In this document: piece by piece, positions 10,321-46,546 of the stretch
How positions within the stretch are numbered: the first letter of the stretch is position 1
Layout of the letters: each line of letters begins with the position of its first letter
DNA from: Candidatus Poribacteria bacterium
GTDB taxonomy: Bacteria > Poribacteria > WGA-4E > WGA-3G
Direction: 5' to 3'
Assembly (NCBI GenBank): GCA_965205015.1
Contig: OZ242029.1
Location: forward strand, 2,304,001 to 2,368,000
DNA: 64,000 nt
Notes under the pieces: model-generated
The model's input: the letters and a program-made list of their open reading frames with translations, nothing else
Told to the model about the DNA's origin: nothing
Database searches by the model: none
Program-made: the position numbers and the translations under genes

Positions 10321-10355
10321 TAGAGGTCGCCGTGCCTCACATCTTTGGGGGAAAC

Positions 10356-28137: not shown

Positions 28138-28165
28138 GTAGATCCTACTTCTTATGTTGGCGTAG

Positions 28166-28237
28166 TTAATCACGCAATTAATCGTTCACCTAATCGCCTA
28201 ATTAATCGCCTAATTAATCGCCTAATTAATCAGTTAC
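28166..28237 (-). repeat. Six 12-bp tandem units NNNNNN-GAT-TAR overlapping and following the stop codon of the AlbA_2 gene
   Basis: (T/C)TAATC at 28166, 28178, 28190, 28202, 28214 and 28226. Confidence 0.9.
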
Positions 28238-29605
28238 TTTTCGGACGTACTTGGTTCCTCGTCCCTTTCCTACCACAGTCAGTAAACCTTTGTTGGTCAA
28301 ATCGGTTAGTTCTGCATAGGCCGTCTGGCGCGAGACATGATTAATCTCTACATACTTCTTGGTTGTAATTTGCCCGTGTCTTTGCACATAGAAAAATGCA
28401 TTCCTTTGCCGCTCATTTAACTGCTCCGAGATGTCGTCAATTTCAATGTAGGTCGTCTCTTGAATCGGAGAGTCAAAGATGATTGTGGTTTGAAGTGGAT
28501 GAAAGGCGTAACGCGGTTCTGTGTTTCCCCACTCCGCAGAGAGTCTTTTCATCATTCTGATGCCAGCACCATACCGTTCAATAAACCCGACATCATACAT
28601 CAATTGGCTCAAAGTAGGATTTACCGGTTCATGAACTGGTTCATCTGGATTGACACCTTCTGGAAAAGTGCCGGGATTAATAATCTCAACGCGGTTATCA
28701 AATATAAAGACCCGGACATCTGCGGATTTTTGATAGTTGCGGTGAATTAGTGCATTGATAATCGCTTCCCTTAATGCCTTAAGCGGATATTCAAATTTAT
28801 CGTCTCGTTGGAAACTCATTGAAGTCCGAAGACTCAGGAGCCGAATATTTTTCCTGATGAATTCCTCCGCAGCATCGACCATCTCCCAAAGTGCCCCAGA
28901 GCAATCCAGTCGATTAATGACAGGATGGGTAACCGATATTCCTTTGAATCTGACAACCCTCAATTGTGCGTTTCGGAAGAATCTTTGGGGATACTTGCCA
29001 AAGAAGAGAATACCGGCATAGGTTGGGGTCTCTTCATCGCTAAGTCCATCAATATTCTTCAACAAGGCAGTTAAACGCATATCCTGTGGCTTTGCCACAT
29101 TTCGGATCGTTTCTCGACGGGTCAGATACCATTCGACTTTTTTCTCATCTATATCATCAATTCCGGCACGTGTAACTACAAGTTGATCCCAACTCTGTCC
29201 AGTGGCGTTGAGGTGCATCTGGGCAATCTCTTGTGGAGACATGACTCGGTTACTATTCCCGACCCTCTTATAACACACGCCTTTAACAGAAACAGGTTTT
29301 AGCGACGATTCCGAGATATGTATCAACAAAATCGATTTTCCACCTATATCAACCGATTCAATTTCCAGAACCACCCGCGGTTCGGTCGCCTGGGCGATCC
29401 GGTTTGACCAGTTTCTGAGTGTCTCTTTTCCAATGGTAATTCCTCGGATCTCTCCGTTATCAGAGACACCGATAAAAATGATCCCTCCGTGGGTATTGGC
29501 AAATGCAGCGGCGGTCTCAATAGCCTCCTGATCAAAATTCTCTTTGAATTCGGTTGTGGTGTTTTCGCCTTGTGTGATGCGTTGTTTAAGATCAGCAGTT
29601 TCCAT
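28226..29605 (-). CDS. Schlafen/AlbA_2 + HATPase_c_4 + wHTH protein
   Basis: GENTTTEFKE, AAFANTHGGIIFIGVSD, ALREAIINALIHRNY, NPGTFP, IERYGAGI, LNERQ...GKGRGTKY. Confidence 0.9.
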   Translation of the reverse strand: METADLKQRITQGENTTTEFKENFDQEAIETAAAFANTHGGIIFIGVSDNGEIRGITIGKETLRNWSNRIAQATEPRVVLEIESVDIGGKSILLIHISESSLKPVSVKGVCYKRVGNSNRVMSPQEIAQMHLNATGQSWDQLVVTRAGIDDIDEKKVEWYLTRRETIRNVAKPQDMRLTALLKNIDGLSDEETPTYAGILFFGKYPQRFFRNAQLRVVRFKGISVTHPVINRLDCSGALWEMVDAAEEFIRKNIRLLSLRTSMSFQRDDKFEYPLKALREAIINALIHRNYQKSADVRVFIFDNRVEIINPGTFPEGVNPDEPVHEPVNPTLSQLMYDVGFIERYGAGIRMMKRLSAEWGNTEPRYAFHPLQTTIIFDSPIQETTYIEIDDISEQLNERQRNAFFYVQRHGQITTKKYVEINHVSRQTAYAELTDLTNKGLLTVVGKGRGTKYVRKVTD

Positions 29606-29627
29606 AGTTTTTGGCAAATTCTAATAC

Positions 29628-29831
29628 CTATTCTTCCGAAGGATTGTCAACTGGAATTGGTTTACTGCGTCCCATGTATTTCAACTTAACCCGTATTGTA
29701 CCAGATTGACGTGGTGGAGGGGTAACTATGACCGCATCCACGTTAAGGATGTCCTCTTCATCGTAGACAGGAAAATCAGGGCGTTGCATCGGCTTTTCGT
29801 TGGTTGTGTTTGTGTATTGTAGTGTTTTCAT
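29628..29831 (-). CDS. Small hypothetical protein, 67 aa
   Basis: AAAGGAG RBS; PPPRQSGTIRVKLKYMGRSKPIP. Confidence 0.6.
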   Translation of the reverse strand: MKTLQYTNTTNEKPMQRPDFPVYDEEDILNVDAVIVTPPPRQSGTIRVKLKYMGRSKPIPVDNPSEE

Positions 29832-29893
29832 GATATGTTCAGTTCTCCTTTTACATACAATTCTAACAAAGATTTGCCGGATGTGCAACCATA

Positions 29894-31522
29894 TTACAAA
29901 GGAAAAAATACATTCCGATTAAGGTCTTGAATTCCAAACCATTTCAGGTTCCAATCACCGATTCTTGTTCCCGGTCTGGAAACTAAATAATGCTCTCTTT
30001 CCTTAGGCAGGTACTTTCGGTCTTTTAGCCATTGCATCGTAGATCGAAGGCTGTCCGTCGTTTTTAACTTTTCTATGAGATGATTGGCTCGAATGACAGG
30101 TACGTTGGGAGCTTGAACATTACCATAACCGATCCAATTCTCCGATACAACAACTCCTTCAAGTCTGTAACTCGAGTCGATGTTGAGTTTGTCTAATAAC
30201 GGCTTATAGTTTTCCGTAAAAGCTTGTTTTAGTTTTAGAATCTGAGAAATGCCCGTTTTAATTTCTTTAGATTTATTAATACGTTCATGTGCTGTCGTTG
30301 GAGCAATGAACCATTTGAGTTCTAAGAGTAAACACGCTTTTTCGGAATGATTTACAATAGCGAGATCAATATCTGTTAATTTTGCTACATTGCCCGAATA
30401 AAATTTAAAATCTTTATCAGATAATCGGGTCTTAAAACGCTCTCTCATGAGGTTTTCTTTTTTATCAACATATTTTTCATAGATTGTCTTTTCAGTTGGG
30501 AACCTATTTAAAAGCGAAATAAAATTCCGCTCTGCTGCGGAACAAATCCATATATTAGGTGCAATTGCATAATGTTTTGAATTTAATTTCATTAAAGGTT
30601 GTAAGGCAGGGATAGGCCTTTTAATATTACTACCTCCATAGGTCAAATCATCAAGAACACTTTTTACCTTTATAGGGGACATATCAGAATATCTCGCAAC
30701 GGACCTTATCAATCTACCGTAGGTTATTAGGTAAATACCATCAACATAACCTTTATGAGCACAGCCCTGCTTCATAGCCATTATCCGTGCTCCCCAGTGA
30801 ATATGTGCTATAGCACATATTACCTCAAAAACCTTCCGAAAATCGCCTAACGAGTAGCGACCGAATTTCCATTCACTGGGTAGTAAAAACATTCTGTCAA
30901 ATAGAGGTTTCAGGTATATTTTCACATCAGAAACCATTCTTGTATCCAATTTATAGCTGAATCTATCGCCTTCTACCTGTAGAGAATTTTGGATTGCTGC
31001 TATAGGAAAATTACTAGGATCCAAGAAAGATAATGCTTCTTCAGGTTCACGCGGATCAATCAAGATATTATACGCTTCGTATTCTATACTTGAGAAAAAA
31101 TTCCCCGTTGGTTGAATAGTTGATCCTTGAAGTTCCAATTCAAGTTCCCCCCCACTGGCACATGTGTAGGCGAAGACGAACCAATCATATTTCCTGCCTA
31201 ACTCAAACAAATCCTTAGATGGGTTATAAAGTTCGGGGTTATAAGCAGAGGGAATTTTCCCACCTTGTTCGCACTCACGGTGGAGCCAAGACACAGAGTG
31301 CTCGATTTCAGTAATAAAGTCACTACTCAGCGCGTGGCTATCTTGTACTCTGGTTATTCCACGAGTTTGCTCATTTAGCATATACTCTTCAGCATACGCC
31401 AACAAAGACCACGCGGCAGTTGCAAAAGAATGTTTGAGAAGCAGATTAGATTTGTAATAATCGTCTATTTCTTTCTCAATTTTTCGCAATTCACGTGAGA
31501 CATTGTCAGGGGCTTTCGTCAT
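29894..31522 (-). CDS. Hypothetical protein with C-terminal PD-(D/E)XK (NERD-like) nuclease domain
   Basis: TDIDLAIV...LLLELKW, later GISQ; AT-rich sequence. Confidence 0.7.
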   Translation of the reverse strand: MTKAPDNVSRELRKIEKEIDDYYKSNLLLKHSFATAAWSLLAYAEEYMLNEQTRGITRVQDSHALSSDFITEIEHSVSWLHRECEQGGKIPSAYNPELYNPSKDLFELGRKYDWFVFAYTCASGGELELELQGSTIQPTGNFFSSIEYEAYNILIDPREPEEALSFLDPSNFPIAAIQNSLQVEGDRFSYKLDTRMVSDVKIYLKPLFDRMFLLPSEWKFGRYSLGDFRKVFEVICAIAHIHWGARIMAMKQGCAHKGYVDGIYLITYGRLIRSVARYSDMSPIKVKSVLDDLTYGGSNIKRPIPALQPLMKLNSKHYAIAPNIWICSAAERNFISLLNRFPTEKTIYEKYVDKKENLMRERFKTRLSDKDFKFYSGNVAKLTDIDLAIVNHSEKACLLLELKWFIAPTTAHERINKSKEIKTGISQILKLKQAFTENYKPLLDKLNIDSSYRLEGVVVSENWIGYGNVQAPNVPVIRANHLIEKLKTTDSLRSTMQWLKDRKYLPKEREHYLVSRPGTRIGDWNLKWFGIQDLNRNVFFPL

Positions 31523-31544
31523 GAAATCCTATCCTTTGGCTGCG

Positions 31545-31604
31545 TTAATTCCTCAATCCCATCCGATATTTGATGTCGTAGTTGATGATGAAATCTAATT
31601 CCTC
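31545..31604 (-). pseudogene. Orphan duplicate of the methyltransferase 3' end (EELDFIINYDIKYRMGLRN*)
   Basis: 31555-31604 matches 35568-35617 at 48 of 50 positions. Confidence 0.88.
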
Positions 31605-31662
31605 TCCTCAAAATGATCGACATGAAAACAGATGGAGAACATGATTTTTGACCTGAACTGAT

Positions 31663-33222
31663 TTAGTCCGTTTCTGTATCATTCTGCAAATGCCTACGGA
31701 TAAACTCTGTTGCCTCCGGTCCTAATAACTTTTTCTTACCACCTTCAGTTTTGACAAAAAGTTTCCCGCTACTTGTGTAAAAGATGTCCTTTCTCTGTAG
31801 AGGTGGAACTAAAAGTTCAACAACCCACAAATCCTCTATTGTTTCTTTGTTCAAGTTATAGACGGGATGCAATTCAAGCTGCCAATCTTCAACACTAATT
31901 GGGGGTTGTACAGCCCCCAGTTTTTCAGATACTTTACGCCGCACCTCATCTCTTTGTCGGTCATCAAGAGGGATGCCTACTGTGATTCTATTACGATCCC
32001 TTATTCCCCAGAAGATGCGTCCGCCCTCACCATTAAGAAAGGCAACAGCATATTCATCAGAAGTATTTGTAATTGGGCTAACAGGATTTTTACTTTTGAT
32101 TTCCTTAAATTCATAAAAGCGTGTTTCTTCAAAAGGGACAGGTTGCTTCTGGATAAAACGGATTTGGGTCGGTTTGGTTAATTTATCAGCATCAGTCGCA
32201 ATTGCTAAGTATTTTTCAGCTATCTGTTTGTTGTCACGTAATTCGGAAAATTGACTTTCTGAGTCAAACGCAATGCCTTTTTCAAAACACTCAAGTGCTT
32301 TTTGGTATTGTTTGAGACTGAGAAAAGTCAAACCTCTGTTGTTTAAAACAATTGCCTTGTGGCTTGCATCTTGCACCGCGTCAAGTGCATCATCGAAATT
32401 GTTGAGAGCAGCTTGGAATTCTCCAAGATGAAGGAATGCTAAACCATCATCAGATAAGTCAATCGGATTAACATACGTAATCAATTGTCCAGTGCGCCAA
32501 TTCTGTGCTAAGTCCTCCTCCACTTTACGGGAGCCAAAAACCCTTGTCCCTGTTGTCTCAACGTACTTTTCGTTGATGGTTGCCAAGCTCACTTGGGTAC
32601 TTATCTTGACCAACCGAATTTGGAGTTTGTCGTGAAGAGACATATAAGCGATAGGGTTCATATCAGCAGCAAGCATTTCCGATAATTTCATCATGAATTC
32701 GTTATTCAGGTTTTGAAGGAGTTCGTCACGAGTCCAACCAGGAGAATCTAACTGATTCCAATGTGACCAAGATTCGTTAAAAGCTGCTGTGTCACCATGC
32801 AAAGCAAAAAACAATGCTGAGGGAGACGCGAGTAGTATTCTTCCGATTTGCTGTTTCTCCCCATCAGTTTGATACACTGAATCAAGGTAGAAACGTCTAA
32901 GAACATAGTCAACTAACCGATAGTCAATTCTAGCAAAGTAATACTCAGAAGTAATAAATTGCTCCGTTTCCTCATCATTTTCTTCTTTCTCTGAAAGGAA
33001 CTCTTTAACTAATCGTGCGAAAGTTTCAATATCTTTTCTGAGAACATACTGACTTACCTCATCTTGGCCTACTTTTTCACCAATATTTTCTGAGACGAGT
33101 GCTGTAAGTTGCTCCTCTATAGCTGCCAACAACTCACCAATCTCATTAGCAATTTCGTTTGTAGTCTTGGGAGTGCAATCTAATAAGTGTAAAATAATTT
33201 TTTTCCGGATTAAAGTATCCAT
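31663..33222 (-). CDS. wHTH + TPR + C-terminal Schlafen/AlbA_2 protein
   Basis: N-terminal ILHLL..PKTTNEIANEIG HTH, two TPRs, ETRFYEFKE...AVAFLNGEGGRIFWGIRD; GGAGG RBS before ATG 33222. Confidence 0.82.
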   Translation of the reverse strand: MDTLIRKKIILHLLDCTPKTTNEIANEIGELLAAIEEQLTALVSENIGEKVGQDEVSQYVLRKDIETFARLVKEFLSEKEENDEETEQFITSEYYFARIDYRLVDYVLRRFYLDSVYQTDGEKQQIGRILLASPSALFFALHGDTAAFNESWSHWNQLDSPGWTRDELLQNLNNEFMMKLSEMLAADMNPIAYMSLHDKLQIRLVKISTQVSLATINEKYVETTGTRVFGSRKVEEDLAQNWRTGQLITYVNPIDLSDDGLAFLHLGEFQAALNNFDDALDAVQDASHKAIVLNNRGLTFLSLKQYQKALECFEKGIAFDSESQFSELRDNKQIAEKYLAIATDADKLTKPTQIRFIQKQPVPFEETRFYEFKEIKSKNPVSPITNTSDEYAVAFLNGEGGRIFWGIRDRNRITVGIPLDDRQRDEVRRKVSEKLGAVQPPISVEDWQLELHPVYNLNKETIEDLWVVELLVPPLQRKDIFYTSSGKLFVKTEGGKKKLLGPEATEFIRRHLQNDTETD

Positions 33223-33336
33223 CGCATCCTCCATGTTTGGCAATTTGTGAGATGTATTCTATTCTTCTTGTCAATTTCCCGAATCCATACGATATTAGGT
33301 GGAGTCCAACGTTAGTTGTATTGTGGCTTGTATTTC

Positions 33337-35234
33337 TCACTGCTTCAGTCCATCAATACCGATTTCCTCAGATGGCACGGGTTCCATTTCTGGTTTGTTC
33401 ACGAAGTTTAACACCGGGACTGTAAACCTCTCAGCTTTCACGTATACGTTCTTTAGGTCAATATCTCTTGCCAAAACTGAAATTGGATCTTCGTAATTGG
33501 TAATGTTGTTTCTTTGCAGGAAATCCTCGACAACGTTGAATTTTATGGCGAAATTGACGTTTTGATTCCGGACAACATCAGGATTAAGACTACTCACAAC
33601 AACCCCAACCACATTTCCAGCAGAATCCAATACAGGGCCCCCACTGTTCCCTCCTTGGGTTGGTGCAGTGTACTGAAAAAGATTATTGGGTTGGGGATCA
33701 CCTATTGTAGATGTCAGTCCGCTAACAATGCCTGATGTACCATTACCTCTGTATGACAATAGACTACTCAGTGGATAGCCGAACACGGCCACCTCTTCTC
33801 CAAAATCAACCGGATAACTCCTGAATGTCGCAGTATTGGGATTTCCGTGTGGATCAAACAGTAATGCCAAATCAATATCTTCATCCACCGCGATTACTTT
33901 TACGCGGTGGTAAGGAGTGCGTAACTCATCGCATGAATTTATAACGTGAGCATTGGTCAGAATGTGATTTTCGCTGATATAAAACCCTGTGCCAGAGGAA
34001 GCTAGCCGCTTGGGTTTCCAGTTATCAATTTGTTTCTGAATTTCACTTTTCTGTTTTTCAGATAATCTATTTCCAACATTTGATGCTTCTTTAGCTACTT
34101 CGGCAGCAATGTTGTGAAAGTCTGTCTTATCCAAGCCAGGTTGTCCTCAAGTGCTAAGCTATACCAATAATATGCTTCCTCGTCGTCTAGTGGTACCTTT
34201 TCCTGCCCTTTGGTGAAGTTCATGCCAAGATTGGCCTGTGCGATAGCAAAACCTTGCTGAGCAGATGCAAAAGTGAGCCTCCGCGCCATTTCGGGGTTAT
34301 AGGACACACCTTTTCCCTCGTTATACATTTCGGCCAAACCATGTTGGGCCCGCGCCAATTCCTGTTCAGCTGCCATTTGATACCATTTGGCAGCTTCTTT
34401 GAAATTCTGGTTTATGCCATTACCCTTAAGGTAAACGAGACCGAGGCTGAATTGAGATTCAGCAATGCCTTGTTCAGCTGCCATTTGATACCATCTTAAT
34501 GCCTCTTTAAAGTCCCGCTCCACTCCACTTCCGGTAGCATACATTGTGGCGAGATTGTGTTGCGCTGGAGCATAGCCTTTCTTATATGGAGAGCCTTCAC
34601 TAAGATTTGGAGTTGCTGCCTTTGTAAACAATTCCAAGGCCTTTTCAGAGTCTTTCACAACTCCCCACAAGCCAGTTCGGTATATCTCGGCAAGTTCATA
34701 TTGGGCTGGTGGATAATTTTGCTCCACAGCCTTCTCATTCCAGTCTACTATTAGGACGGGTAATTCAATAGCCCTTGTAGCATCCGTAAAGGAAGAAAGA
34801 ACAACACCTAATCTGCACATTAAGGCAGCATTAAATTGTGCAACCGCATTGCCTTGGTTTGCTGCATCGTGGAACCACTTCAAAGCTATTTGGAACCACT
34901 GCAAAACTATTGTTAATATTTCAATTCCGAACTCCTTACTCGAAAGTAATGCATGTGCCCCAATACATTCATACATTACACCGAGATCGTTTTGGGCTAG
35001 AACATAACCTTGTTCGGCAGCTTTTGTATACCATGCGATAGCTTTTTCAAGGTCAGGTCTTACTCCTCTACCGTGCTTGTACATGAAACCGAGGCAGAAT
35101 TGTGCTACGGGATCGTCGTGGACGACTGCCCTTTGTTCAAAATCGTACATTGCCATTTCGTAGTGTCCACGATAGTAAGCTGCGAGGCCTGCATCGTAGT
35201 TTGAAGACTCCTCGGCTGTTGGTGGAATTTCCAT
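33337..35234 (-). pseudogene. SEL1-repeat + trypsin-like serine protease, split by a 1-bp frameshift near 34140
   Basis: ORF 34095-35234 carries SEL1 repeats; ORF 33337-34134 carries TNAHV, DLALL, GNSGGP. Adding one A (GAC AAA CCT GGC TTG GAT AAG) fuses them. Confidence 0.75.
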
Positions 35235-35298
35235 TATAATTATTCCTCCGTTGGTTATCAAAATTGAATGTTTGTCTAAACACAAGTTAACACTTGCT

Positions 35299-35374: not shown

Positions 35375-36093
35375 AAGAAAGGTGCTGAAAAAGGGATTCA
35401 AACGATCAGAATTCGTTAGTAGCAAGTTGGGTTAAATAGCGCGGAATGAATCGGAAATTCTTCTGAATAACACCCTGATAATGTCAACAAATATTAAGTA
35501 TAGCACACAGCACAAGGAAGGTCAAATTTATTTGTTTTTTGCGTCCAATTGGCTGTATTAATGCCCTAATCCCATCCGATATTTGATGTCGTAGTTGATG
35601 ATGAAGTCCAATTCCTCGTCGGTGAAGCCGTAGTGTTTAGCGAGCACGCGGTCGATGTCGTCTATAATGTCTTTACTCAAACGTGGGTAGAACTCTTGAT
35701 AGATAATCTGTCCTGTCCGGGACGAGGTTTGTTCCTTCAGTTGACTGTTTTCTCTGTAATCGACCATCAACTTTTTACATAAAGATTCTAATTCATTGGC
35801 ATGGGTTGCTGATAATTGCGTTAAATTTATTGGAAACTCGTAAAGGACACTTGGAGCCAAATCACGACAGTTTGTCGTAAGTATGTAATACCAATAAAAT
35901 AAGGAACTACTCAAGATCGAGATTCCGATGTTTCTCGCTCTTTCTTCTTGAAAATATAGATGGTTTTCTTTACTCGACATAGATTCCTTGCCGTTTAAAA
36001 CGAACCGGGGTTGGAAGTTCGTGAATATTTTCCAGTATCGTCCGCCACTCGTTCGATAATAAATAGGAGATGAAGACCGCTTTAATAAATGAG

Positions 36094-37448
36094 CTGATAT
36101 TTCTCAAAAGTTGTCCTAAAGCAATAGTTATCAAGGTTCTTTAGGATTAAGTTTATGAAAATGCGTCATGAAATCCATGAGCGTCTGTCTTTCTCCGGTG
36201 AGTTGAAGCTGTATTTGATGAAATGTGCGTCGCTCTGAGATGCTAACTTGAAGCAACATCAGGTAGCTCATGGCTTTTATGCCAAGACTCACATACGCAC
36301 CTTCTCTGCTTTCCAAACTCATCGCGGAGATGTGCAAACTCGATTTCAAATACCGCCAATACTGTTCAATACCATGGTGTTGCGACCAAATCCTCAGTGC
36401 CTCGCAGGTGCGTAGCGGTTTACCAAAGATTAAGAGGGTGCGTATCTTTTTCCGATCCACAAAGAAGATGACGACACACTCGCCAAAAGTTGGGCTTTCC
36501 GCTTTGAGACGACAGACGGGTTTATCACACCCCCATTGATCTTCACGCAACTCTATGTGCTTTTTATGAGCCGAAAGTTTCGCAGTTGTATCGCCTATGG
36601 TCATGACATAGTTGTTTTTTCCGTGAACGAGTATGCAAGCAAACCCTAACTCCGATAAGGCCTCAACGAGTTTACGACTGCCATACCACGAATCGAAGGT
36701 AATCGGATACTTTCTTAGATCAACGCCTTGGGTATCAAAGAAATCTAAGACATCTTTGAGCATCGCTATCGCAAGACTCGGTTTATCTGTATTGCCACGT
36801 CCTTGTTTACTGACAAGACGCGTCTGTAATGGAATCACGCGATCGCCAACTTTTAGTGTGATCCCTAAGACGTTCTGACACCAGATAGAGGTCTTGTGTT
36901 TTTTCGACCACCACTTTGAACAATAAGAGAGCGTCTCTCCGTAGCGAGGTAGATTCGTATCATCAACACTGACGGTAATCCGCCGCCGCGATTGCGTTGA
37001 AGCACTCTTGCTTTCGGCGTCTTTGATGAAATCGACTGCCATCGCACACCCGAGTCGTAGATTCAAAGACTTCGAGTGATAGAAACTCAGAGAACCGAGG
37101 TGCCGATAAAGACCGGCTTTCGGAAGTTCCAAGGCATCGGCAACTTGATTCGGGTTGTAAAGTCCAAAGAGATGACAAACGCAGAGCAGCAGCAGTGTCT
37201 CAACGACTTGACGCTTCATACACTGAAAGGAAGAACAAAGAAGGTCTTGAAAAAAGAGGGTGGATTTGATAAGATGATCACGCATGCGATGGCCTCCTAA
37301 TGACTCAAAGGTGGTTCTCTGAATCCTTAGGATGCCATTTCATGTGCTAAAAATCAAGCACCCTTTTCAAAACCATCGCATTTTCACCTTGCTATACCTG
37401 CTTTCTCTTTGTTATTACTGCCTTCATGATAACTGTGATAAATATCAG
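36094..37448 (-). mobile_element. Insertion sequence, IS701/IS4-like DDE, 1355 bp
   Basis: Imperfect IRs CTGATATTTCTCAAAAGTTGTC and CTGATATTTATCACAGTTATC; 5-bp TSD ATGAG on both sides. Confidence 0.9.
36131..37285 (-). CDS. DDE transposase (IS701/IS4-like)
   Basis: VSVDDT, ITFDSWYGS, HHGIEQYWRYLK. Confidence 0.88.
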   Translation of the reverse strand: MRDHLIKSTLFFQDLLCSSFQCMKRQVVETLLLLCVCHLFGLYNPNQVADALELPKAGLYRHLGSLSFYHSKSLNLRLGCAMAVDFIKDAESKSASTQSRRRITVSVDDTNLPRYGETLSYCSKWWSKKHKTSIWCQNVLGITLKVGDRVIPLQTRLVSKQGRGNTDKPSLAIAMLKDVLDFFDTQGVDLRKYPITFDSWYGSRKLVEALSELGFACILVHGKNNYVMTIGDTTAKLSAHKKHIELREDQWGCDKPVCRLKAESPTFGECVVIFFVDRKKIRTLLIFGKPLRTCEALRIWSQHHGIEQYWRYLKSSLHISAMSLESREGAYVSLGIKAMSYLMLLQVSISERRTFHQIQLQLTGERQTLMDFMTHFHKLNPKEP

Positions 37449-37508
37449 ATGAGTTTGTAAGTTCCCAACATAAAAAAATAATTTTGCAAGAATACTCGCC
37501 TCGGTATT

Positions 37509-38848
37509 CAGGGTCATTCAATTTTAAGATTCCTCATTTTATGAGGTTAACTGCGAGTATAGGTTTTGCTGCGAGATATTGGAGAGCATCAGTGATTTTT
37601 GTATGTCCGGTGAATCGTAAAACAGAAAGTGCCGTGTTTCGCATGGCTGCCATGACTTGAGGGATCACGCCGGTTCGGACGCATGAGGCATCCTCTCGAA
37701 AGACGGTATCTCGGACCCAATGAAGTTTATTCTCAATCGTCCAATGCTCACGTCGGAGTTTGAGCAAATCCGCTGCCGAGGCACGTTGAGGTGTCAGACT
37801 CGTGATGCCATACTGCACGTGGCACTTGACCTTTTTGGTGTTTTTCTGTTCCTGGTGTGTGATGTATTGATAAACTTGCTGTAGCCCTGGCCAGTCGGAA
37901 TCCTCTCTCAAGAGGGTGCTTGCGGTGAGGGTGCGAGTGGTAATCCTACCTTTTGCGTCTTCTGTGTCTGTATACGTCTGAAGTGTTGCCTCGTTTTCTA
38001 CGTGAAGGTTTTCAAACCGGCGATGCTCGACTTCAGGGGGGTCAGTTTCATCAAAGGGTTCAAAGAGGTCTCGAATATCTTCATATAACTGCTTCTGATT
38101 CGCTTTGACGGGGAGACAATAATCTGCGTGATTTTCAAGAATCTGTTGACAGAACTTACGTTGGCTGAGAAGGGCATCGGTGGTAATCACCAGACCTGCG
38201 ACATCAAAGGCTTTCAGGAGTTCGATGGAAAGTGGGATTTCATTGGTCTTTTCACCCACCGCAGCTTCTGCCACAGGGATGCCTACCTCATGAAAGACGG
38301 CTGCGAGGAGATGTGTCCTGCGGGCATCTTCGCTATGACTGTTGCCTAAGGTTTTGCCATCTATGGCAAGTCCCTTCAAGCCAGACGTGGAAATGGGCAA
38401 ACTGGCTAAAGTCTGTGTTGTCCACTGCGTGAGCGTCTTTTCTACAGCCGTGATGTCCAGACGTTGATAAAGATAATGAAACGTCGATGCTGCCGGGGTT
38501 TGTTTGGCTCTGAACCCCAAGGCGTTTGGCAGGTCTGGGTGGAGGCGTGCCCATTTGGCAATCTGTGTATAGCTGCGTTGTCCACACAAGAGTCCGACAA
38601 CCGTGAGGGCGAGCATCGCGGCTAAGGGGTGGCGGCGTCCTTTTTTCTTGCGTGGATCTGGCACTTTTGCTAACATATCAAGTAAGTGGCAAGAGGAACG
38701 TCTTGTCATGATTCACCTCAAAAACGTGGTAATTTTTAGGGTGAAGTATAGCAGAAGTCGCGTGAAAAGTCACGCGACTTCTGCTTATCTGAAAATATTA
38801 ACACCTGTGAAAAATATGACACCAAAAACCTACAATTGAATGGCCCTG
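37509..38848 (-). mobile_element. ISAs1 family insertion sequence, 1340 bp
   Basis: IRs CAGGGTCATTCAATT and CAGGGCCATTCAATT; 10-bp TSD CCTCGGTATT at 37499-37508 and 38849-38858. Confidence 0.94.
37534..38709 (-). CDS. ISAs1 family transposase
   Basis: VPDPR...RHPL, AIDGKT, KTNEIP, ITTDALLSQ, VKANQ, HWTIENKLHWVRD. Confidence 0.95.
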   Translation of the reverse strand: MTRRSSCHLLDMLAKVPDPRKKKGRRHPLAAMLALTVVGLLCGQRSYTQIAKWARLHPDLPNALGFRAKQTPAASTFHYLYQRLDITAVEKTLTQWTTQTLASLPISTSGLKGLAIDGKTLGNSHSEDARRTHLLAAVFHEVGIPVAEAAVGEKTNEIPLSIELLKAFDVAGLVITTDALLSQRKFCQQILENHADYCLPVKANQKQLYEDIRDLFEPFDETDPPEVEHRRFENLHVENEATLQTYTDTEDAKGRITTRTLTASTLLREDSDWPGLQQVYQYITHQEQKNTKKVKCHVQYGITSLTPQRASAADLLKLRREHWTIENKLHWVRDTVFREDASCVRTGVIPQVMAAMRNTALSVLRFTGHTKITDALQYLAAKPILAVNLIK

Positions 38849-39448
38849 CCTCGGTATTGGAGCAAAGTTTTGGAATAACATGTGGTTTGACTTTCTCCAC
38901 TGCAAAATGGTAAGTAATGCGATGAAAAAGATGAAATCTTTCATCGCTAGTCCACTTCATAAATTCAGTTGTAGCAAGAGCACATTCGCCCTTTCTCCCG
39001 GCTCTGCTTAGTAAAATTGTCAATAGAACATCAGCCCCAGCGAAGAGTTTGCTAGGTCTTTCAGCGAAATTACTTAGCCAAACTAATTTTGATGATCGAA
39101 TAAGTATTTTCTGCATCGTTTCCATTCTCTGAGTACCGACAAGACTTATGGGGACAATAAAGCCAAAACCTCCAGAATTATTCAAAAGCCTCAAACTTCT
39201 TTCACTCGCAAACGCGTAGAGGTTACCACAATCTTCTGTCTCATAATTTTTCACGGCGTAGTCTTTCCTAACCTTTCTATATTCCACATACGGCGGGTTA
39301 CCAATAATCACATCAAAGCCACCGTCCTTCAGAATCCCGTAGAACGCAATGAACCAGTGGAACGGCTTATGTGAAGAAAGCCATGCCTGATAAGCGGGAT
39401 TGGTATCCGCCGAGTCGAGATTTACTTTTTGCTTATCGTTTGTAAAGT

Positions 39449-39459
39449 GGGGGGGGGGG
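39449..39459 (+). repeat. G11 homopolymer inside the methyltransferase gene, out of frame
   Basis: 11 G; G12 or G9 restores the frame into NPPY. Confidence 0.85.
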
Positions 39460-41623
39460 CCGCATTGTATTCGCCAGCAAGGTATTCGTTGAGTTCGTTT
39501 TCTAACGCCCTGAGTTTATCCTGTAAAACTTGTTTGTCTGCTGGGCGCACATCGCCTCCCAATTCCGTCTGCTGCTCCCGAAACAGGAAAGACAACCGCT
39601 CAACATCTTCAACCTTTTCTTCAATGCGCTTCATGGTATCGTCGAAGTCAAATTTACCGGTGACTGCTTCCTTCACCTCATCGTAGGAGGTATAACCGAC
39701 GAGGGTATTTCCTGCCTGAATGTTAAAGTCGATGTCTGGTAGTGGCTCGATCCGTCTCACGTCCTCAAGTTGCGCTACCATTTTTAAGAAAAGGCGCAGT
39801 TTGCAAATCTCAATTGCCTCCTCCATGATGTCTACGCCGTAGAGGTTGTTGATAATGATGGATTTGAGGATGAAGTAACGGTGATTTGGGTGCTGCTTAA
39901 TGTCCTCAAGGATATTGCGGAAGTCGTTATATTTACGAGAGGAGCGTGATTCAGAAATCATTTCTATCTCGTCTAAGAAGACTTGCATCCGATCAAGACA
40001 TGCCTCATAGAGCGGTTCGAGGATATTCAGTGCGGCAAATAGGAATGCCCCGGAACCACAAGTGGGGTCGAGTATTGTCACCTGCGTGATGGATTTCCAG
40101 AAGGCGCGGAGGAGTTCGGGACTTTCACAATTTTCAATAACATCCTGCGCGAATTGACGGATGTTAAGGTTGTAGGTGATTAGATCGTTGATGTCGCGGA
40201 CCTCTCCATTTGCGAGTTTGGCTCGAACGGTCTTGTAACGTTGCCGCCGTGCGACAACCTCTCGCCAGATCTCGGTTGGCAAGGCGTATTCATCGGACGC
40301 GAGTGTGTTCCAGCAATCGTTACGTTTGGAGACATCGTCGATTCCAGCAGCGATTTCCTCTGGCAAATCTAATTTGACCCCTTTTTTTACGGCATCGTAG
40401 ATGTAACGGTCAGGATCTTCTTGTAGGGGTTTCCAGACAGACGGGTTGCCTTCAAACTCGGTTTTGCATGCCTTTCGCGCCTTGTCAAAGAGGCATGGGA
40501 TGATGGTATTTTTGCTGATATAGTCCGTGATGTCTTCTTTGGTGTAGTAGGCACCCATCTGCTTCTGGTTGATGTATTTCTCAAAGATGTAACCGAGGAC
40601 ATCAGGGTTAATCTCGTTATCGTTCCGTAGCGGACGATCGTCGAGATGCCACTGGTATTGCTCAAAGAACTTGAAAAGTTGTTCAAATGCTTTGTCAGGA
40701 ATCTCAATGTTTTCACCGTGGAGTGTTTCAAGGTGGTGTTTCTGAAAGATGCCCCCGTTGAGATAGGGGATTTTACCGAGCAGACGTTTCACCTCTCTGC
40801 TCCGTTCGTTTTCCGGTTTCGCGAATCCGTCAAAGAAAAGCGGACAGAGGAATCCTTTGTAATATCGGTCAGTGTTCTGTGTCAACTTGTTGCGCAGATA
40901 GTTTGGATCGTCATCAAGGAAGCCTTTCTTCTGGATGAAGTAGATGAACATCAAGCGATTAAGCATGACGGAGGCGTACCAGCGTTGCATTTCTTCATCG
41001 GGAATGCCGTTGAGGAATTTGAGGAATGCAGTATGCTCTCTTTTGAAATGGTCATAGAATTTTTTGGTAACCCTTTCAATGTCAAAACTTACCCGAACAC
41101 GGCTCGTTACATCGAACAGTGTAAGTTGCCCTTCCTCCTCAAAACTAAAGGCAATGGCTTCAAGTTTTTGGATCAGCAAGTCACCGGGTTGTGTTGTATG
41201 ATACCGATGTTCACGACACGCTGTGGGTTTTCCGTGCTCTCGCCTTACCCACTGCCAGATGTGTGTGTTTTTTGGGGCATCAGTGTAAATGATAAAGTGC
41301 TCGTAAAAAGATTTTGCAACTTCCTTTTGAATCTTGCGGCGAGTCGTGTAATCTGGGATGTGGTCATCAGATGTAGTTGGTGAACACTCAAAGACGACCA
41401 TCCCGCGTTTTTCAGCAATGGCCGTGAGTCGATAGTCGGTTTCGTCTACTGTGATATTGAGTGGTTGGGTGCGATGATAATCCCAACCGAGTTCTTCAAT
41501 AAAGAGGGTTTCAAATTCGGATTCTTTGAGATATTGGCGTGTTTCTCGAAGGTTCAGCATTTATGTTTTCCTGTGAATTCGTGTGGTTTCAAAGCCTAAC
41601 GATCCAATTTGAGTAGATCATGG

Positions 41624-41905
41624 TTAATAGATATCACCACGATTATCAATTTGAACAATGCGAATTACCCGTCTGTCTCTATCAACTCGGTAAACGAAAC
41701 GAATATCCCCGATGCGATAGCGATAACGTTCTTTTGTTCTGCCGCGCAATCGCCTGATTGTCATAGGGTTTTCGTGATGAAAAGGAGAGTGGGTGATATA
41801 TTCAAAAGCGGCATTAATTCGTTCCCGTGTTTTTTGATCTCGCCGCTTAATAAAATTTTCAACCTTTCTTGGAAGAGGCTCAAGCGTGAAGGGCTGGTGA
41901 TTCAC
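41624..41905 (-). CDS. RelE/ParE family toxin
   Basis: IRRLRG...YRYRIGDIRFVYRV...IDNRGDIY. Confidence 0.9.
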   Translation of the reverse strand: MNHQPFTLEPLPRKVENFIKRRDQKTRERINAAFEYITHSPFHHENPMTIRRLRGRTKERYRYRIGDIRFVYRVDRDRRVIRIVQIDNRGDIY

Positions 41906-42231
41906 AGCCCAATCTCCTTCTTAATCTGAGACCACGGTTTTCCGCCGCCAGCATCTAATTCCTGTTCTGCCTCAGCAATATCTGCCAGGACCTCTGGTTC
42001 TGAATTGATGAGTGCTGTTTCGCGCCAATCCGCAAGAAAAACCGAAAACGTTTCGCGATATTTTTTTTCTTCTGAGGTGTGTGTTAGCAGTTCAAGCAAT
42101 TCCTCGAAAAACTCAACAAGTTCCTCGGGATCCAACCATTTAAGCCACTCAAGGGACTTTGAAATCGGAACAGATTTGACGAACAATTGATCATTCATGA
42201 GGTGTCCAACGACAAGTTTGGGCTTTTTCAT
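41902..42231 (-). CDS. Putative cognate antitoxin
   Basis: Acidic; WRETALI.SEPEVLADIAEAEQEL..G...WSQIKKEIGL RelB/Phd-like tail; GTGA overlap with relE. Confidence 0.8.
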   Translation of the reverse strand: MKKPKLVVGHLMNDQLFVKSVPISKSLEWLKWLDPEELVEFFEELLELLTHTSEEKKYRETFSVFLADWRETALINSEPEVLADIAEAEQELDAGGGKPWSQIKKEIGL

Positions 42232-42269
42232 CTGAGGTCTCCATGTGTGTCAGTGTTAGGTTTAGGCAG

Positions 42270-42298
42270 ATTATACACGATGTATTGATGGGATTCAA
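42270..42298 (-). promoter_or_regulatory. Sigma70 promoter of the antitoxin-relE pair
   Basis: TTGAAT-17 bp-TATAAT; paralogous to 46518-46546. Confidence 0.7.
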
Positions 42299-42398
42299 GT
42301 ATCTTTTTAGGTAAACTAAGGTTTTGGATCTAAGAGTCCGGGGCGGTTAGGTGAAAGACCCTACCGGTTCTGGGACGAGTCTATCTTTTTTCGTAGAT

Positions 42399-45300
42399 TT
42401 ATGCGTTACTTGTACGAAGTCCTAACGAACAAACAATCTGCGGTTCTCGCGTTTGCCGCTCTTCCTCAATAATGCAAAGCCGATCCGTTTCCCATAAATC
42501 AATTACCAATTCTGCAAGAGCTTCGTTGGAAATACTGCTGCGGAGTTGACGGTTGAGAGTATCAGTTGCTGTCTGCCGCAGCGGATACCGGTAAATAGCT
42601 TCAATGACCTGTTTAAGTTGAGGCGTGTTAAGTAGCGTTCCTTCGACCTCTGAGGCGTAATCCTTCAGGCGTTCATAAGTGCGGAACCGTGCCCCTGATG
42701 GGCGTCCGAGTTGTCCGCCACTCGTCCGTTCTTCAGAGACAATCAACTTTGCGGCTTCTTCCACAAGGCGGTGATGTTCTTCGAGCGGTGAGAGTGCCTC
42801 AGTCTTCGGTTGGCACGCTGCAGCTTGGAGAATCGCAAACTGGGATTCGGTTACGCTTTGACCGTCTTGATCTATCCATGCCAGCGCGTCGTTTTCCTGT
42901 CCCGTTCGGATGTAGACCAGCGCGCCTTCGGGTTCGTTATCGGTTAGCGTATGCGGTTGGGTTGAATAGACGACAGAGGAGAGTGCAGGAACAATTTTTT
43001 CTAAATTCGGATCTTGCGTAATGGCGTTTTTCCAAATCTGGTAGGCATGAGAGGCGAGGTCAACATCGTTATCCCGTTCATCGTCAAGCAAGCCTGCCTC
43101 CTCATTATAGAGATTAACAATCGTCTGATTGCCTTCCTCACCGTCGTCTTCAAAAAAGGCTTCGTCCGTGCCGACAACCTCTGCGTTCTGGCGAAGGCGC
43201 GCACGGACGCGTCCGCGTAAGTTAATGATGCGCTCCACGCCTTCGGCGGGTAGGAACGAATAGCACAAAATGTCTTCTGACATCTGACCAATCCGGTCAA
43301 CCCGACCTGCACGCTGCACCAAGCGTATGATTGCCCATGGCAGATCGTAGTTGACAACAATTGAACAGTCCTGCAAATTTTGTCCCTCACTCAGGACATC
43401 TGTACTAATGAGCACCCGCAATTCGTCTGCCCGATTAATTCTATCCCGTTTATTGTTGCTGATAGGACTAAAGCGATGTGCTAAGGCGGTGGGATCTGCC
43501 GAATCGCCAGTCGCTGGAGCGATTTGTGTCATCCCGCGTTCTGAGAGGACATCTGTGAGATACTGCACTGTATCCGCGAATTGTGTGAAGACTAAGACCT
43601 TATCGTCCGGATGTGTCTGGATTAGCAGTTCTTGAAGGGCATTGAGTTTTGCGTCTTGTTCGGGGTTCCATGTGCCGTATTGCTGCAGGATCTCAGTGAG
43701 TGCGAGCGCGTCACCAGTAAGGTCTTTCCGTAGCACGGACAAAAAGAGATTTGGACGCAGCCACTTAAACCTGCTTTTATACTTTGTCCTGTAGAGTCGA
43801 TAGATAGCAGCGGCGCGTTGTTTGTAGCCGTCGTCCGTGTATTGCCGAGATTGTGAGTCGGTATTATCAATCTGTGTGTCATCTTCATCACCAGAAGCAT
43901 CTAAGATAACGGTGGCGTCCTCGGTATCTCTGTCTTCAAACCGAGAATCGAGCATCTCGGCGTTCTGGGATCCGATCGGCAGCGGTTCATCGTTTTCAAG
44001 GGCGTGAAGGAAGATATAATTCCGTAGGATATGCCGATCAACGGATTGAATGAACGCTTGTCCACTGCTTTCGAGTCGTTTGAAAAGATTCGTTCGGCAA
44101 AATCCCATCAATCGTTGTCCCCCACGGGAGAGGTCTTCTAACTGCTGCTGCTCTGTTTCCGTCGGTGGCTCCGATGGTGCGTCAACAATGTAGTTTGCAA
44201 GTCCATACCGAGCCAACTTGAGACTGCTAATCACGTTCACAACAGAAGCAGAGTATAGTTGTGCGTAGGTATCGTCTGGATTTTGATCGTCAATTTCAAA
44301 CTGTATTGTTTTTGGCACGCGCGTAGGAAAGTAGGATCGCGTGCCGTCAGGAAAGGAGAGGAATTTCCGCTGTGTCTCAGGATCCGTGTCGGCGTAATTT
44401 TCCGTGATGAAACTTCGCGTGCGACGCACAAGATACCGGCGCATCAACTCACGCCAGTCGTCAATATACTCACTGTGTTCAAACGCTGAAAGCGTCCGGA
44501 CTCCGCTTTGGTGTTTACGGATAAACTCGGTTTCACTGCCTAACTTCTTGATGTATTGCTCTGGTCGAATGCCGAGATCCTCGGTTTCATCAACAAAAAG
44601 GCGGAGTTGATTAGAGAGATCGAGATAGGTTTTGTTATAGGGGGTCGCGGAGAGGAGGATGACCTTGCTCTCGTTTTGTTGGATATAGTCCTGAATGGCG
44701 CGGTAACGTTTGCCTTCACGGTTTCTGAGATTATGGCTTTCATCAATCATGACGAGGCGATAGCGTCGGAGATCGGGCAATTCGTTAAGCACTCGGCTAA
44801 TTGAGAGCACCCTTCCCCGTAGGCGATATTCCTCTCGATAGTCTTCCCACATATTAACGAGATTCTTCGGACAGATAATCAGTGTTTCAAGGTCGTAATC
44901 GTCTTCCTGTATGCGCGCCAGTGCCGTCCCCATGAGCGTTTTGCCGAGTCCGACGACATCCCCTATGAGCACACCCCCGCGTCTGTTGAGATGATGCGCT
45001 GCGATTTTCACGGCAGCCGTTTGGAATTCAAAGAGTTTGTCCTCAAATTCGCGTGGAATCTGAAATTCAGTCAACCCAGCGCGTGCTTCCTGTGAGAGGT
45101 GATACGCCATTTTGATATAAATGTGATATGGGGGGATGCGTTCCTCACGCGCCCAACTCTGCTCGATAATTTCAATCAATTCCTTAGAAATGTCGATGCA
45201 CCATCTGTCATTCCACCGGTCTTCAAACCAATCCTCTAACTTATCACAAGAATCTGAGTCAACAACATCAATGTTGAGTTCTGCCTGATGTGACAGCCCA

Positions 45301-45797
45301 GAAAGCGTCAAATTGCTACTGCCGAGGTAACCCACAGTCGGCGCGACGAGGTCAGAACGATAGATTAAATAGAGTTTCGCATGGAGCGTATGTCGCAGAA
45401 AGAGTTTTACCTTTACTTTCTCGTCACGAAGTTGTTGTGCCAACTGACGCAATCCTATTTCATCCGCACGCGTCGGCACACCGACAGTCAGTTGTTCTCG
45501 AAATTCCTCTGCCAATCTCCGTTTCAAACGGAGTGCGGTTTGGTTGTCGATTCTGCCGTCCTGCTTCGCGAGTCTCTTGGCATGCCGGAGTTCTTCATTT
45601 GGCAAGCGTTGCATGCCGACAAGTAAGCGGCAGCATTCGTCTGCACCGCCATCCCAATTCTCAACGTAAGATGCGAGTCCTCTCCAGCCACGAAGATTGA
45701 AATAGCCGACACAAAAGTCGGCATGTGTAGCGGTTTCAAGTGTCTGTTGGAGTGCAGGAAGTAGCGGTTGGTCGATATTATCGAAGATACGGGGCAT
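42399..45797 (-). CDS. PLD (HxK) nuclease + SNF2-type SF2 helicase
   Basis: [21 protein letters not shown]; [40 protein letters not shown]. Confidence 0.93.
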
Positions 45798-46478
45798 TTA
45801 GAATGATGTCTCCTCGTCGTCCTCGTCATCCATATCCATTCCGAGGTAAAGTCCCATGGGAGCGAGACCTGCTTTGACTTTTTGGAGTGATCCCATCCCG
45901 AAATGATTGATCTGTAGTAGTTCTGATTCCGTTTTTTCGACGAGTGCTCGTAAGGTATAGATGTTTTCCCTTTCGAGGCAATTGTGGGCTCGGGTCGGGA
46001 GTCTGAGTGCAGTGATAGAGAGAGTTAAGTAATCATCCCGCTCCTGTTCCGTCACATCAGCGATCTCCGGTTCCCTGTAGATGTTAGGGAACAGTGGGTC
46101 CCGTTCATCTTGGACATCGATAATATTTACCCAAGGTGAATCCAACTCCTGTTCTGCCTCAGTCATATCTGACAAGACATCGCTTTCTGGATGGAGCAAA
46201 ACTCTTTGGAGCAAAGGAGGGAGAGATTCCCAAATCCTCGCGTAATCCTCCGATTCTAATGCGGTTTCACGCCAATGGTCCAGAAAGGTCCGAAGCGTCT
46301 CGCTATCTTCCTTTCCCTCTGAAATCTGTGCTATCAATTCAAATAATCCCTCAAAAAACGGAACAAGTTCTTCGACCACTAACGAGCTGATCCAATTGAG
46401 GGGTTTTGAAATCTTAACAGATTTCACGAGCATTTCGTCTTCAATAAGGTATCCAACGACAAGTTTAGCCTTTTTCAT
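45798..46478 (-). CDS. Antitoxin paralogue fused to an RNA polymerase alpha C-terminal domain
   Basis: N-terminus aligns with 41902-42231. C-terminus LRLPTRAHNCLERENIYTLRALVEKTESELLQINHFGMGSLQKVKAGL.MGLYLGM matches the alphaCTD pattern. Confidence 0.85.
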   Translation of the reverse strand: MKKAKLVVGYLIEDEMLVKSVKISKPLNWISSLVVEELVPFFEGLFELIAQISEGKEDSETLRTFLDHWRETALESEDYARIWESLPPLLQRVLLHPESDVLSDMTEAEQELDSPWVNIIDVQDERDPLFPNIYREPEIADVTEQERDDYLTLSITALRLPTRAHNCLERENIYTLRALVEKTESELLQINHFGMGSLQKVKAGLAPMGLYLGMDMDDEDDEETSF

Positions 46479-46517
46479 TTGAAACCTCTGTGTAGCAAGA
46501 GTGTTAAATTTATGCCA

Positions 46518-46546
46518 ATTATACAGGACGTATTGATAGTGTTCAA
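46518..46546 (-). promoter_or_regulatory. Sigma70 promoter of the alphaCTD-fusion/helicase unit
   Basis: TTGAAC-17 bp-TATAAT; spacer shares ATCAATAC with the copy at 42270. Confidence 0.7.

Follow-up and report, generated by a model that had tools for sequence, protein, structure and literature searches.

A 226-residue protein of Candidatus Poribacteria joins an antitoxin-like N-terminal part to the C-terminal domain of the RNA polymerase (RNAP) alpha subunit (alphaCTD), and we propose, at a probability of about one half, that this protein arose from an antitoxin and regulates the transcription of defence genes, as a controller that needs no toxin. Its gene lies in a stretch of 64,000 nt (hereafter the window, meaning the whole stretch analysed) of contig OZ242029.1 (GCA_965205015.1), at the head of a restriction-like locus made up of an HKD (phospholipase D, PLD)-nuclease joined to an SNF2 helicase, a short antitoxin followed by a RelE/ParE-superfamily toxin, and a PglX/type IIG-like N6-adenine methyltransferase. 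All open reading frames (ORFs) of the locus are on the minus strand, at the coordinates given in a preliminary description of this DNA (Table 1). We observe how the fusion is built, that it is conserved, where it lies, that it does not depend on the toxin and that its C-terminal part stems from rpoA; the regulatory function is the reading that we place upon these observations.

The assignment of the C-terminal part to the alphaCTD, first made in the preliminary description, was backed by a strong match to the Pfam family RNA_pol_A_CTD (PF03118) at residues 145-205 (E 8e-17; 61.2 bits against a cut-off of 23.8). In the AlphaFold2 (AF2) model, residues 144-208 reach a predicted local distance difference test score (pLDDT) of ~80-94, and Foldseek superposes them on solved alphaCTD chains with target template modelling (TM) scores of 0.85-0.96 and a root-mean-square deviation (rmsd) of ~1 Å; the matches 9zum, 3n4m, 1lb2 and 3k4g range over target TM 0.78-0.96 and rmsd 0.8-1.7 Å. 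By these models, the C-terminus carries a true alphaCTD fold with its two helix-hairpin-helix motifs. The profile PF26169, listed on some of the homologues, was set aside, being another helix-hairpin-helix profile (HHH_XRCC3_RpoA, an automatic Atlas name).

With the RpoA of E. coli K-12, taken from its annotated record, as the reference for residue mapping, the equivalents of R265, N268, C269, G296 and S299 are kept as R163, N166, C167, G194 and S197, and N294, K297 and K298 have become H192, M195 and G196, exactly as had been read from the sequence before. The '265 determinant' of DNA binding, which we take to consist of R265, N268, C269, G296, K298 and S299, is thus preserved in five of its six residues, K298 being replaced by G. 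Poribacteria RpoA reads N-F-G-R-T-S at 294-299, with T at 298; because the host RpoA itself lacks K298, the absence of this residue is a lineage trait that does not set the fusion apart, and the loss of K297/K298 was rejected as the mark of a specialised alphaCTD for the same reason. The surfaces for protein contact, presumably those named the 261 and 287 determinants, are variable among the fusions, and R317 is changed to D in every aligned fusion. Only the C-terminal ~80 residues of the protein match RpoA, eight NCBIfam rpoA models score it at 38-69 bits where their cut-offs are 228-523, and the real rpoA is located elsewhere in the genomes of relatives. Since the N-terminal domain of alpha is absent, the fusion is not RpoA and would not assemble into RNAP.

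The source of this domain appears to be close at hand. In a tree of 71 alphaCTDs, built on 73 columns only and with outgroup rows that are whatever the query pattern found, 29 fusions and three Poribacteria RpoA group against 39 RpoA of other phyla (Shimodaira-Hasegawa-like approximate likelihood ratio test, SH-aLRT, 97), with the fusions on one side of a branch. The inter-domain linker motif of RpoA (Y.EPEP.ID) and the acidic tail, conserved among the fusions as YLGMDLDDEDDEE..F, were copied along with the alphaCTD, so that linker, alphaCTD and acidic tail together evidently derive from the phylum's own rpoA. The likeness that remains is limited. Over linker and alphaCTD, the fusions are 45-62% identical to host RpoA (median 51%; 89 proteins, one truncated protein showing 25% over 28 columns), and the alphaCTD of the window fusion is ~46-47% identical to that of the host; by comparison, the alphaCTDs of Poribacteria and E. 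coli share 38 of 81 residues (47%). No relative of the fusion was found among 115 pattern matches in a collection of viral contigs. Other alphaCTD proteins were seen in Poribacteria, i.e., an ORF of at least 569 residues with three alphaCTD repeats and a sigma70 region 4 (L089, 1-1707, minus strand) and a stand-alone alphaCTD of 105 residues (L088, 1390-1707, minus strand), which fits a general use of the alphaCTD for regulation or DNA binding.

The N-terminal part is a paralogue of the 109-residue antitoxin, as had been claimed: BLASTP aligns residues 1-119 of the fusion with residues 1-103 of the antitoxin at 57 identities in 123 (46%; E 2e-19). The AF2 model gives it an N-terminal beta-hairpin followed by helices, and residues 94-133 are predicted to be disordered. 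The preliminary description had further held that the terminal helix of the antitoxin was exchanged for a linker and an alphaCTD. Linker and alphaCTD stand, and the extent of the replacement had to be refined from close relatives of the P0210 type, in comparison with which the antitoxin is retained through ...EAEQELDxPWxxI and ~100 rpoA-derived residues take the place of only its last ~six residues. The motif EAEQELD.PW..I, the presumed toxin-binding segment, is common to fusion and antitoxin and is still conserved in genomes that hold no toxin. No family of Pfam, NCBIfam, PADLOC or PHROG matched the antitoxin part above cut-off (DUF6247 scored 19.1 bits against 26.9), a profile search of the Protein Data Bank (PDB) with it gave nothing below E 0.44, a plain sequence search of the PDB gave nothing meaningful, and no helix-turn-helix (HTH) family was found for the fusion in Pfam or NCBIfam. 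The 109-residue protein itself is putatively an antitoxin by position only. Its relatives make up 236 clusters, and three chimeric ORFs (P0211, P0216 and P0221) carry antitoxin residues ~27-109 behind unrelated N-termini, one of which is the remnant of a Uma2-type nuclease (PF05685); this points to frequent recombination within the antitoxin gene. The short antitoxin was also seen in two metagenome-assembled genomes labelled Candidatus Latescibacterota (L033 and L035, the latter with an adjoining toxin), so the antitoxin family may reach beyond Poribacteria, or else these contigs may be mis-binned.

The preliminary description had allowed that the fusion might be a chimera confined to a single genome and free of purifying selection. 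What we found is a family of 89 clusters (at 90% identity) in a search of 5.8 billion proteins, with 39-100% identity to the query and a query coverage of 93-100% in most of them (52-88% in the last four). PF03118 is present in 88 of the 89, all four clusters with a named source are from Candidatus Poribacteria, the frame is shifted in one cluster (P0082), and the weakest matches include a few shorter pieces. An alignment of 36 fusion proteins together with the short antitoxin (37 sequences) holds invariant or near-invariant residues in both halves of the fusion, R163 (the equivalent of R265), C167, G194 and others being at least 90% conserved. Between the window gene and nine relatives, the pairwise ratio of nonsynonymous to synonymous substitution (dN/dS) is 0.15-0.44 in the alphaCTD, 0.19-0.76 in the N-domain and 0.41-0.92 in the middle region, i.e., below 1 throughout. 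By all these signs, purifying selection acts on a conserved family of fusions, whose named members are all Candidatus Poribacteria.

We first describe the genomic position from the loci found through the fusion or the antitoxin, a set biased by its query. Among its 17 fusion genes, that of the window included, eight stand directly upstream of the helicase, five directly upstream of the methyltransferase and four elsewhere, namely one directly before a gene for a Schlafen/AlbA_2 + HATPase_c_4 protein, one a short ORF upstream of such a gene, and two others, of which one is followed by short ORFs and an AAA_21 ATPase and the other by a PhyH gene. The stop codon of the fusion, which had been reported to abut the helicase start, does so in the window, where TAA is followed by ATG without a gap, and it does so in seven of nine copies in the upstream position.

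Because of this bias, a second sample was drawn on the helicase. Of 175 Poribacteria genomes, at least 67 encode a full-length orthologue of it with 69-93% identity, and the best 30 helicase loci were taken with 1.5-kb flanks regardless of any cassette (three have too little upstream flank). Twelve carry the fusion, ten the short antitoxin and nine neither. The slot between helicase and methyltransferase is occupied by the fusion in nine loci, by antitoxin and intact toxin in four, by the antitoxin with a 20-residue remnant of the toxin in one and by the antitoxin alone in five; it is empty in ten, and in one locus the methyltransferase is missing. Four loci have the fusion upstream of the helicase, and one has an antitoxin with a toxin remnant there. 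All cassettes are co-oriented with the helicase. The cassette is therefore an optional module of changing form, for which a conserved system of two genes has two set places; where one genome has the fusion, another has the unfused antitoxin, sometimes accompanied by its toxin. As to the helicase itself, its conservation is unusually high for a defence gene, its neighbourhoods recur (ThuA and enolase-superfamily genes, or a gene of 435-463 residues), and a second family of helicase paralogues, 31-36% identical, is also common.

Such shuffling brings up the thought that the gene is a hitch-hiking, decaying mosaic, a recombination product of a toxin-antitoxin module that is kept mainly for the promoter driving the downstream gene and whose protein has little function. 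The region is indeed recombinogenic, with type and position of the cassette shuffled between genomes, antitoxin ORFs with other N-termini exist, remnants of helicase and methyltransferase are frequent, and the dN/dS of the middle region is 0.41-0.92. We nevertheless consider this very unlikely, as the full-length frame stays open in most of the 89 clusters down to 39-40% identity, the dN/dS of the alphaCTD is 0.15-0.44, and invariant or near-invariant residues run across both domains.

The promoter is the other constant part of the cassette. The pattern TTGAA-N16-18-TGTATAAT occurs exactly twice in the window, both times on the minus strand, at 46518-46546 before the fusion and at 42270-42298 before the short antitoxin, with an expected count of 0.01 and with none of 100 shuffles reaching two. 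The two spacers are alike as well (ATCAATAC.TC.TGTATAAT), so the duplication of the promoters ahead of both paralogues, reported earlier, was confirmed by count and spacer. Eleven distinct fusion promoters give the consensus AAAAA.cTTGAAC...TCGTGTATAAT, in which an A5 tract stands two bases upstream of the -35 box; TGTATAAT makes no canonical extended -10, the promoter scan flagging no TG. Promoter, A5 tract and 5' leader are conserved across fusion and antitoxin cassettes alike, and the gene thus appears to travel with a predicted strong sigma70-type promoter as one cassette, which is set ahead of either the helicase or the methyltransferase. Among metatranscriptomes, 6-7% of the words were met in four RNA runs from a single study, whose contigs show a likeness of 90-99% (none reaching 99%) and hence come from a relative. 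These contigs cover parts of the helicase gene (~42984-45804) and diverge just upstream of its start, none lying on fusion, antitoxin or toxin; they cannot show transcript starts, DNA carry-over is possible, and the result is used for no claim.

With the toxin, the association is loose. The fusion is not directly followed by a toxin gene, the helicase coming next; it is the short paralogue that stands upstream of the toxin, the two ORFs overlapping by 4 nt (GTGA). Fusion, antitoxin and toxin occur together in the window, L007 and L092, a minority type, and among the 12 helicase loci with a fusion an intact toxin was seen in only one. Five whole genomes in which the fusion is present without an adjacent toxin were searched, and the cognate toxin was absent from all five, with ParE-like ORFs of 29-38% identity in three and nothing in two. 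In four of these genomes the fusions are the only matches to the antitoxin family; the fifth also has a 146-residue ORF matching antitoxin residues 1-76. All this, together with the purifying selection that the gene still shows in such toxin-less genomes, argues both against a guard that releases RelE and against a purely antitoxic role. A prediction of the complex between fusion residues 1-135 and the toxin scored 0.00, which carries no weight either way. We also observed the antitoxin without a toxin between helicase and methyltransferase (L106, L107, L117, L120 and L128; also L012-L014), where something other than the neutralisation of its toxin seems to maintain the antitoxin gene or its promoter, and in L025 the toxin frame of a stand-alone pair (10327-10605) holds a stop codon, which suggests a decaying toxin gene.

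These counts bear most directly on the reading favoured in the preliminary description, in which the fusion is an integrated decoy or guard: its alphaCTD would mimic that of RNAP alpha, and the attack of a phage ADP-ribosyltransferase or alphaCTD-binding protein upon it would free the RelE/ParE toxin or otherwise trigger defence. The alphaCTD is authentic, host-derived and retains the R265 equivalent, the rpoA linker and the acidic tail give the protein the likeness of a 'mini-alpha', the gene lies within a defence island, and in the window, L007 and L092 all three partners are together. However, a toxin linked to the supposed decoy in one of 12 loci and in none of five genomes means that a guard releasing RelE is not the general mechanism; an identity of about one half to the host sequence would make for rather poor mimicry, and the surfaces for protein contact vary, with D in place of R317. 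As a general mechanism the proposal found no support here, and we regard it as quite improbable. The alternative offered in the same description, a transcription regulator of the restriction-like operon, is the better fit, given the conserved promoter of its own, the first place in the operon and the slots shared with the antitoxin.

Somewhat similar considerations apply to the thought that the fusion is an orphan antitoxin acting in trans, which would neutralise RelE/ParE toxins encoded elsewhere (anti-addiction) and use its alphaCTD for autoregulatory DNA binding only. Nearly the whole antitoxin is retained, including EAEQELD.PW..I, and stand-alone antitoxin-toxin pairs are common in Poribacteria, some of them sharing a genome with a fusion (L010 with L022, L009 with L029). 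Against this, the fusion is under purifying selection in the very genomes in which no cognate toxin was found, and the role is, to our judgement, also quite doubtful.

Two further possibilities start from the alphaCTD. The fusion could be a free 'mini-alpha', i.e., a dimer with two alphaCTDs competing for UP-like A-tracts or titrating factors that contact the alphaCTD, whether globally or on invading DNA. Its N-domain, rpoA linker and alphaCTD parallel alpha without the domain for RNAP assembly, the residues for DNA contact are conserved, and stand-alone alphaCTD proteins are listed in bacteria and phages, by automatic cluster names only (the ESM Atlas returned only small stand-alone alphaCTD clusters at scores of 0.88-0.89, below the mark of 0.9 and so leads only). 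The tight linkage to two particular genes and a promoter cassette argues instead for a local role, no evidence for high expression was seen, and we hold such competition to be unlikely. Equally unlikely, in our view, is a decoy in which the fusion, with a presumably dimeric N-domain, is a stand-in for RNAP alpha that phage ADP-ribosyltransferases and late-gene activators would strike first; it would either titrate them or have its hold on the promoter altered by them, whereby infection would turn on the restriction genes along with any toxin at the locus.

We therefore return to the regulator, which is favoured by the strong promoter of its own, the first place in the operon, an origin of the autoregulatory type, the conserved DNA-contact residues and the interchangeability of its slot with the antitoxin. 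In classical RelE/ParE modules, the toxin strengthens the binding of the antitoxin to the operator. In the fusion, the antitoxin part might serve self-association and the recognition of an operator at the shared promoter, and the flexibly tethered alphaCTD might touch the DNA a second time, at the A-tract adjoining the -35 box. With this extra contact coming from the alphaCTD, a co-repressing toxin would become unnecessary for regulation. That the fusion binds DNA, which way it regulates and what the A-tract does are inferences. The series of antitoxin with toxin, antitoxin alone and antitoxin-alphaCTD in one slot fits a possible path to toxin-independent control, which may have run in that order.

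Several observations weigh against the regulator. No DNA-binding fold could be recognised in the antitoxin part (AF2 model at pLDDT 78; best E 1.1 for Foldseek against the PDB). No operator could be defined by an inverted-repeat search over ~50 cassette promoters, which brought out only the two promoter boxes (-35 and -10), the A-tract and a conservation of the spacer that is lineage-specific; the inverted repeat ATACA-N3-TGTAT in the antitoxin promoter of the window is not conserved across the family, and the A-tract, being present in antitoxin promoters too, is not specific to the fusion. The regulator model gives no account of the conservation of EAEQELD.PW..I where there is no toxin. The cassette is also dispensable, 9 of the 30 helicase loci having no antitoxin-family gene at all, in a sample whose loci are phylogenetically related and whose counts are hence not independent events, and one fusion (L005), which adjoins the PhyH gene, has no defence gene as a neighbour.

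The neighbours of the fusion are those that had been named for the locus, as confirmed by profile searches for the PLD-SNF2 helicase, the RelE/ParE toxin and the methyltransferase (Table 1). The helicase matches PLDc_2, SNF2-rel_dom and Helicase_C of Pfam, and the methyltransferase, labelled REase_MTase_IIG by PADLOC, matches MmeI_Mtase and Eco57I. A gene for an HKD nuclease and SNF2 helicase adjoins a PglX/type IIG-like methyltransferase, the arrangement of a restriction-modification (R-M)-like system; a toxin-antitoxin pair embedded in an R-M operon is ordinary. Helicase, fusion, antitoxin and toxin are all intact in the window. The methyltransferase is a pseudogene there, owing to a frameshift near 39455-39461 and the insertion of insertion sequences. 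Its ORFs of 712 residues (39422-41560) and 191 residues (38736-39311) match PDLC03628 at 3.2e-242 and 3.9e-34; residues 1-704 lie in one frame (39455-41560) and 701-903 in another (38850-39461), and after residue ~903 the gene is interrupted by an insertion of ~2.8 kb. An assembly error could explain the change of frame, and is ruled out for the insertion.

Table 1. Features of the fusion locus and of the remainder of the island (positions in the window)
Feature	Position	Strand	Remarks
Fusion promoter	46518-46546	-	TTGAAC, 17 nt, TATAAT; A5 tract ahead
Fusion gene, 226 aa	45798-46478	-	antitoxin-like N-part and RpoA-derived C-part
Antitoxin-like part of fusion, aa 1-119	46122-46478	-	
RpoA-derived part of fusion, from ~aa 134	45801-46079	-	linker, alphaCTD, acidic tail
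alphaCTD, aa 144-208	45855-46049	-	
HKD(PLD)-nuclease and SNF2 helicase, 1132 aa	42399-45797	-	intact; PADLOC HKD+Snf2, 1.8e-55
Short-antitoxin promoter (duplicate)	42270-42298	-	TTGAAT, 17 nt, TATAAT
Short antitoxin (putative), 109 aa	41902-42231	-	predicted beta-hairpin, then five helices
RelE/ParE-superfamily toxin, 93 aa	41624-41905	-	PF05016, 26.6 bits (cut-off 23); PHROG RelE-like, 4.4e-14
PglX/type IIG-like N6-adenine methyltransferase	38736-41560	-	broken; PDLC03628, 3.2e-242
Insertion splitting the methyltransferase	36131-38709	-	two DDE transposase genes (37534-38709, 36131-37285)
Displaced C-terminal piece of the methyltransferase	35561-36082	-	matches residues 923-1096 of the intact L007 orthologue
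Sel1-repeat protein	34095-35285	-	
Trypsin-like protease	33337-34134	-	
TPR + Schlafen/AlbA_2	31663-33243	-	
Unannotated ORF, 542 aa	29894-31522	-	
Schlafen/AlbA_2 + HATPase_c_4 + winged HTH (wHTH)	28226-29617	-	
AAA_21/AAA_15 ATPase	26836-28173	-	

Beyond the displaced piece of the methyltransferase, the remainder of the island (26836-35285) continues on the minus strand only with further genes of defence type, and a 22-residue remnant of a methyltransferase C-terminus is seen at 31548-31613.

The alphaCTD is the main docking point of RNAP for UP elements, activators and several phage factors, and captured copies of it fused to other proteins have hardly been studied. Here, one phylum offers a natural series in one slot, from antitoxin with toxin through antitoxin alone to antitoxin-alphaCTD, which allows one to ask how a toxin-antitoxin module becomes a toxin-independent regulator of defence genes and what a tethered alphaCTD can do outside RNAP. 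Should the regulator reading be true, the fusion would add a controller of a new type to those of restriction-like systems; if a decoy were to prove true, it would represent a new sensing principle, an integrated-decoy sensor in a bacterial defence island.

Regarding known systems, the helicase-methyltransferase pair belongs to the known HKD-nuclease/SNF2 kind of ATP-dependent R-M-like systems, to which the three- and four-gene 'Type-2 BREX-related' systems are kin (PMC12839542). As far as the main text of that paper goes, the two agree in the N-terminal HKD domain of the helicase and in the PglX-like partner methyltransferase, and they differ in that the present loci have two genes, neither a DUF499 ATPase nor DUF3780 having been seen adjoining, in work that made no search aimed at them (PMC12839542). 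A term search of this main text gave no occurrence of alpha-CTD or RpoA, and its supplement may list similar two-gene loci (PMC12839542).

The closest relative at hand is the window's own type II antitoxin, with 46% identity over ~120 residues, the same promoter cassette and the same slots; the fusion differs from type II antitoxins of RelE/ParE in that no toxin gene follows it and most genomes carrying it have no toxin. With the alphaCTD of RpoA it shares the fold, the linker motif, R265, N268, C269, G296 and S299, and the grouping with Poribacteria RpoA, but it is only ~46-62% identical to the host alphaCTD, lacks the alpha N-terminal domain and has D for R317. Nothing relevant to such an architecture came out of full-text literature searches, whether these were aimed at an antitoxin-alphaCTD fusion, at the Pfam domain name or at an alphaCTD decoy. 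We rate the fusion as a defence-operon regulator cassette of unprecedented architecture, which falls outside RpoA, the described antitoxin families and the controller (C) proteins of R-M systems.

BrxR/CapW are WYL/wHTH regulators that head varied defence islands. The fusion likewise heads the helicase, the methyltransferase and, directly in one locus, a Schlafen/AlbA_2 gene, but it has neither WYL nor wHTH domains, and its origin and architecture are entirely different. The C proteins of R-M systems are dimers with an Xre-type HTH, presumed to time or limit the expression of the restriction component. Having no HTH, the fusion is not a C protein; it consists of an antitoxin of unassigned fold and an alphaCTD, precedes the methyltransferase in many loci, and has no definable operator resembling a C-box. 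It is, nonetheless, also a small first gene with a promoter of its own, co-oriented with and abutting a nuclease gene, and we infer that it may be analogous to the C proteins in the logic by which they control restriction.

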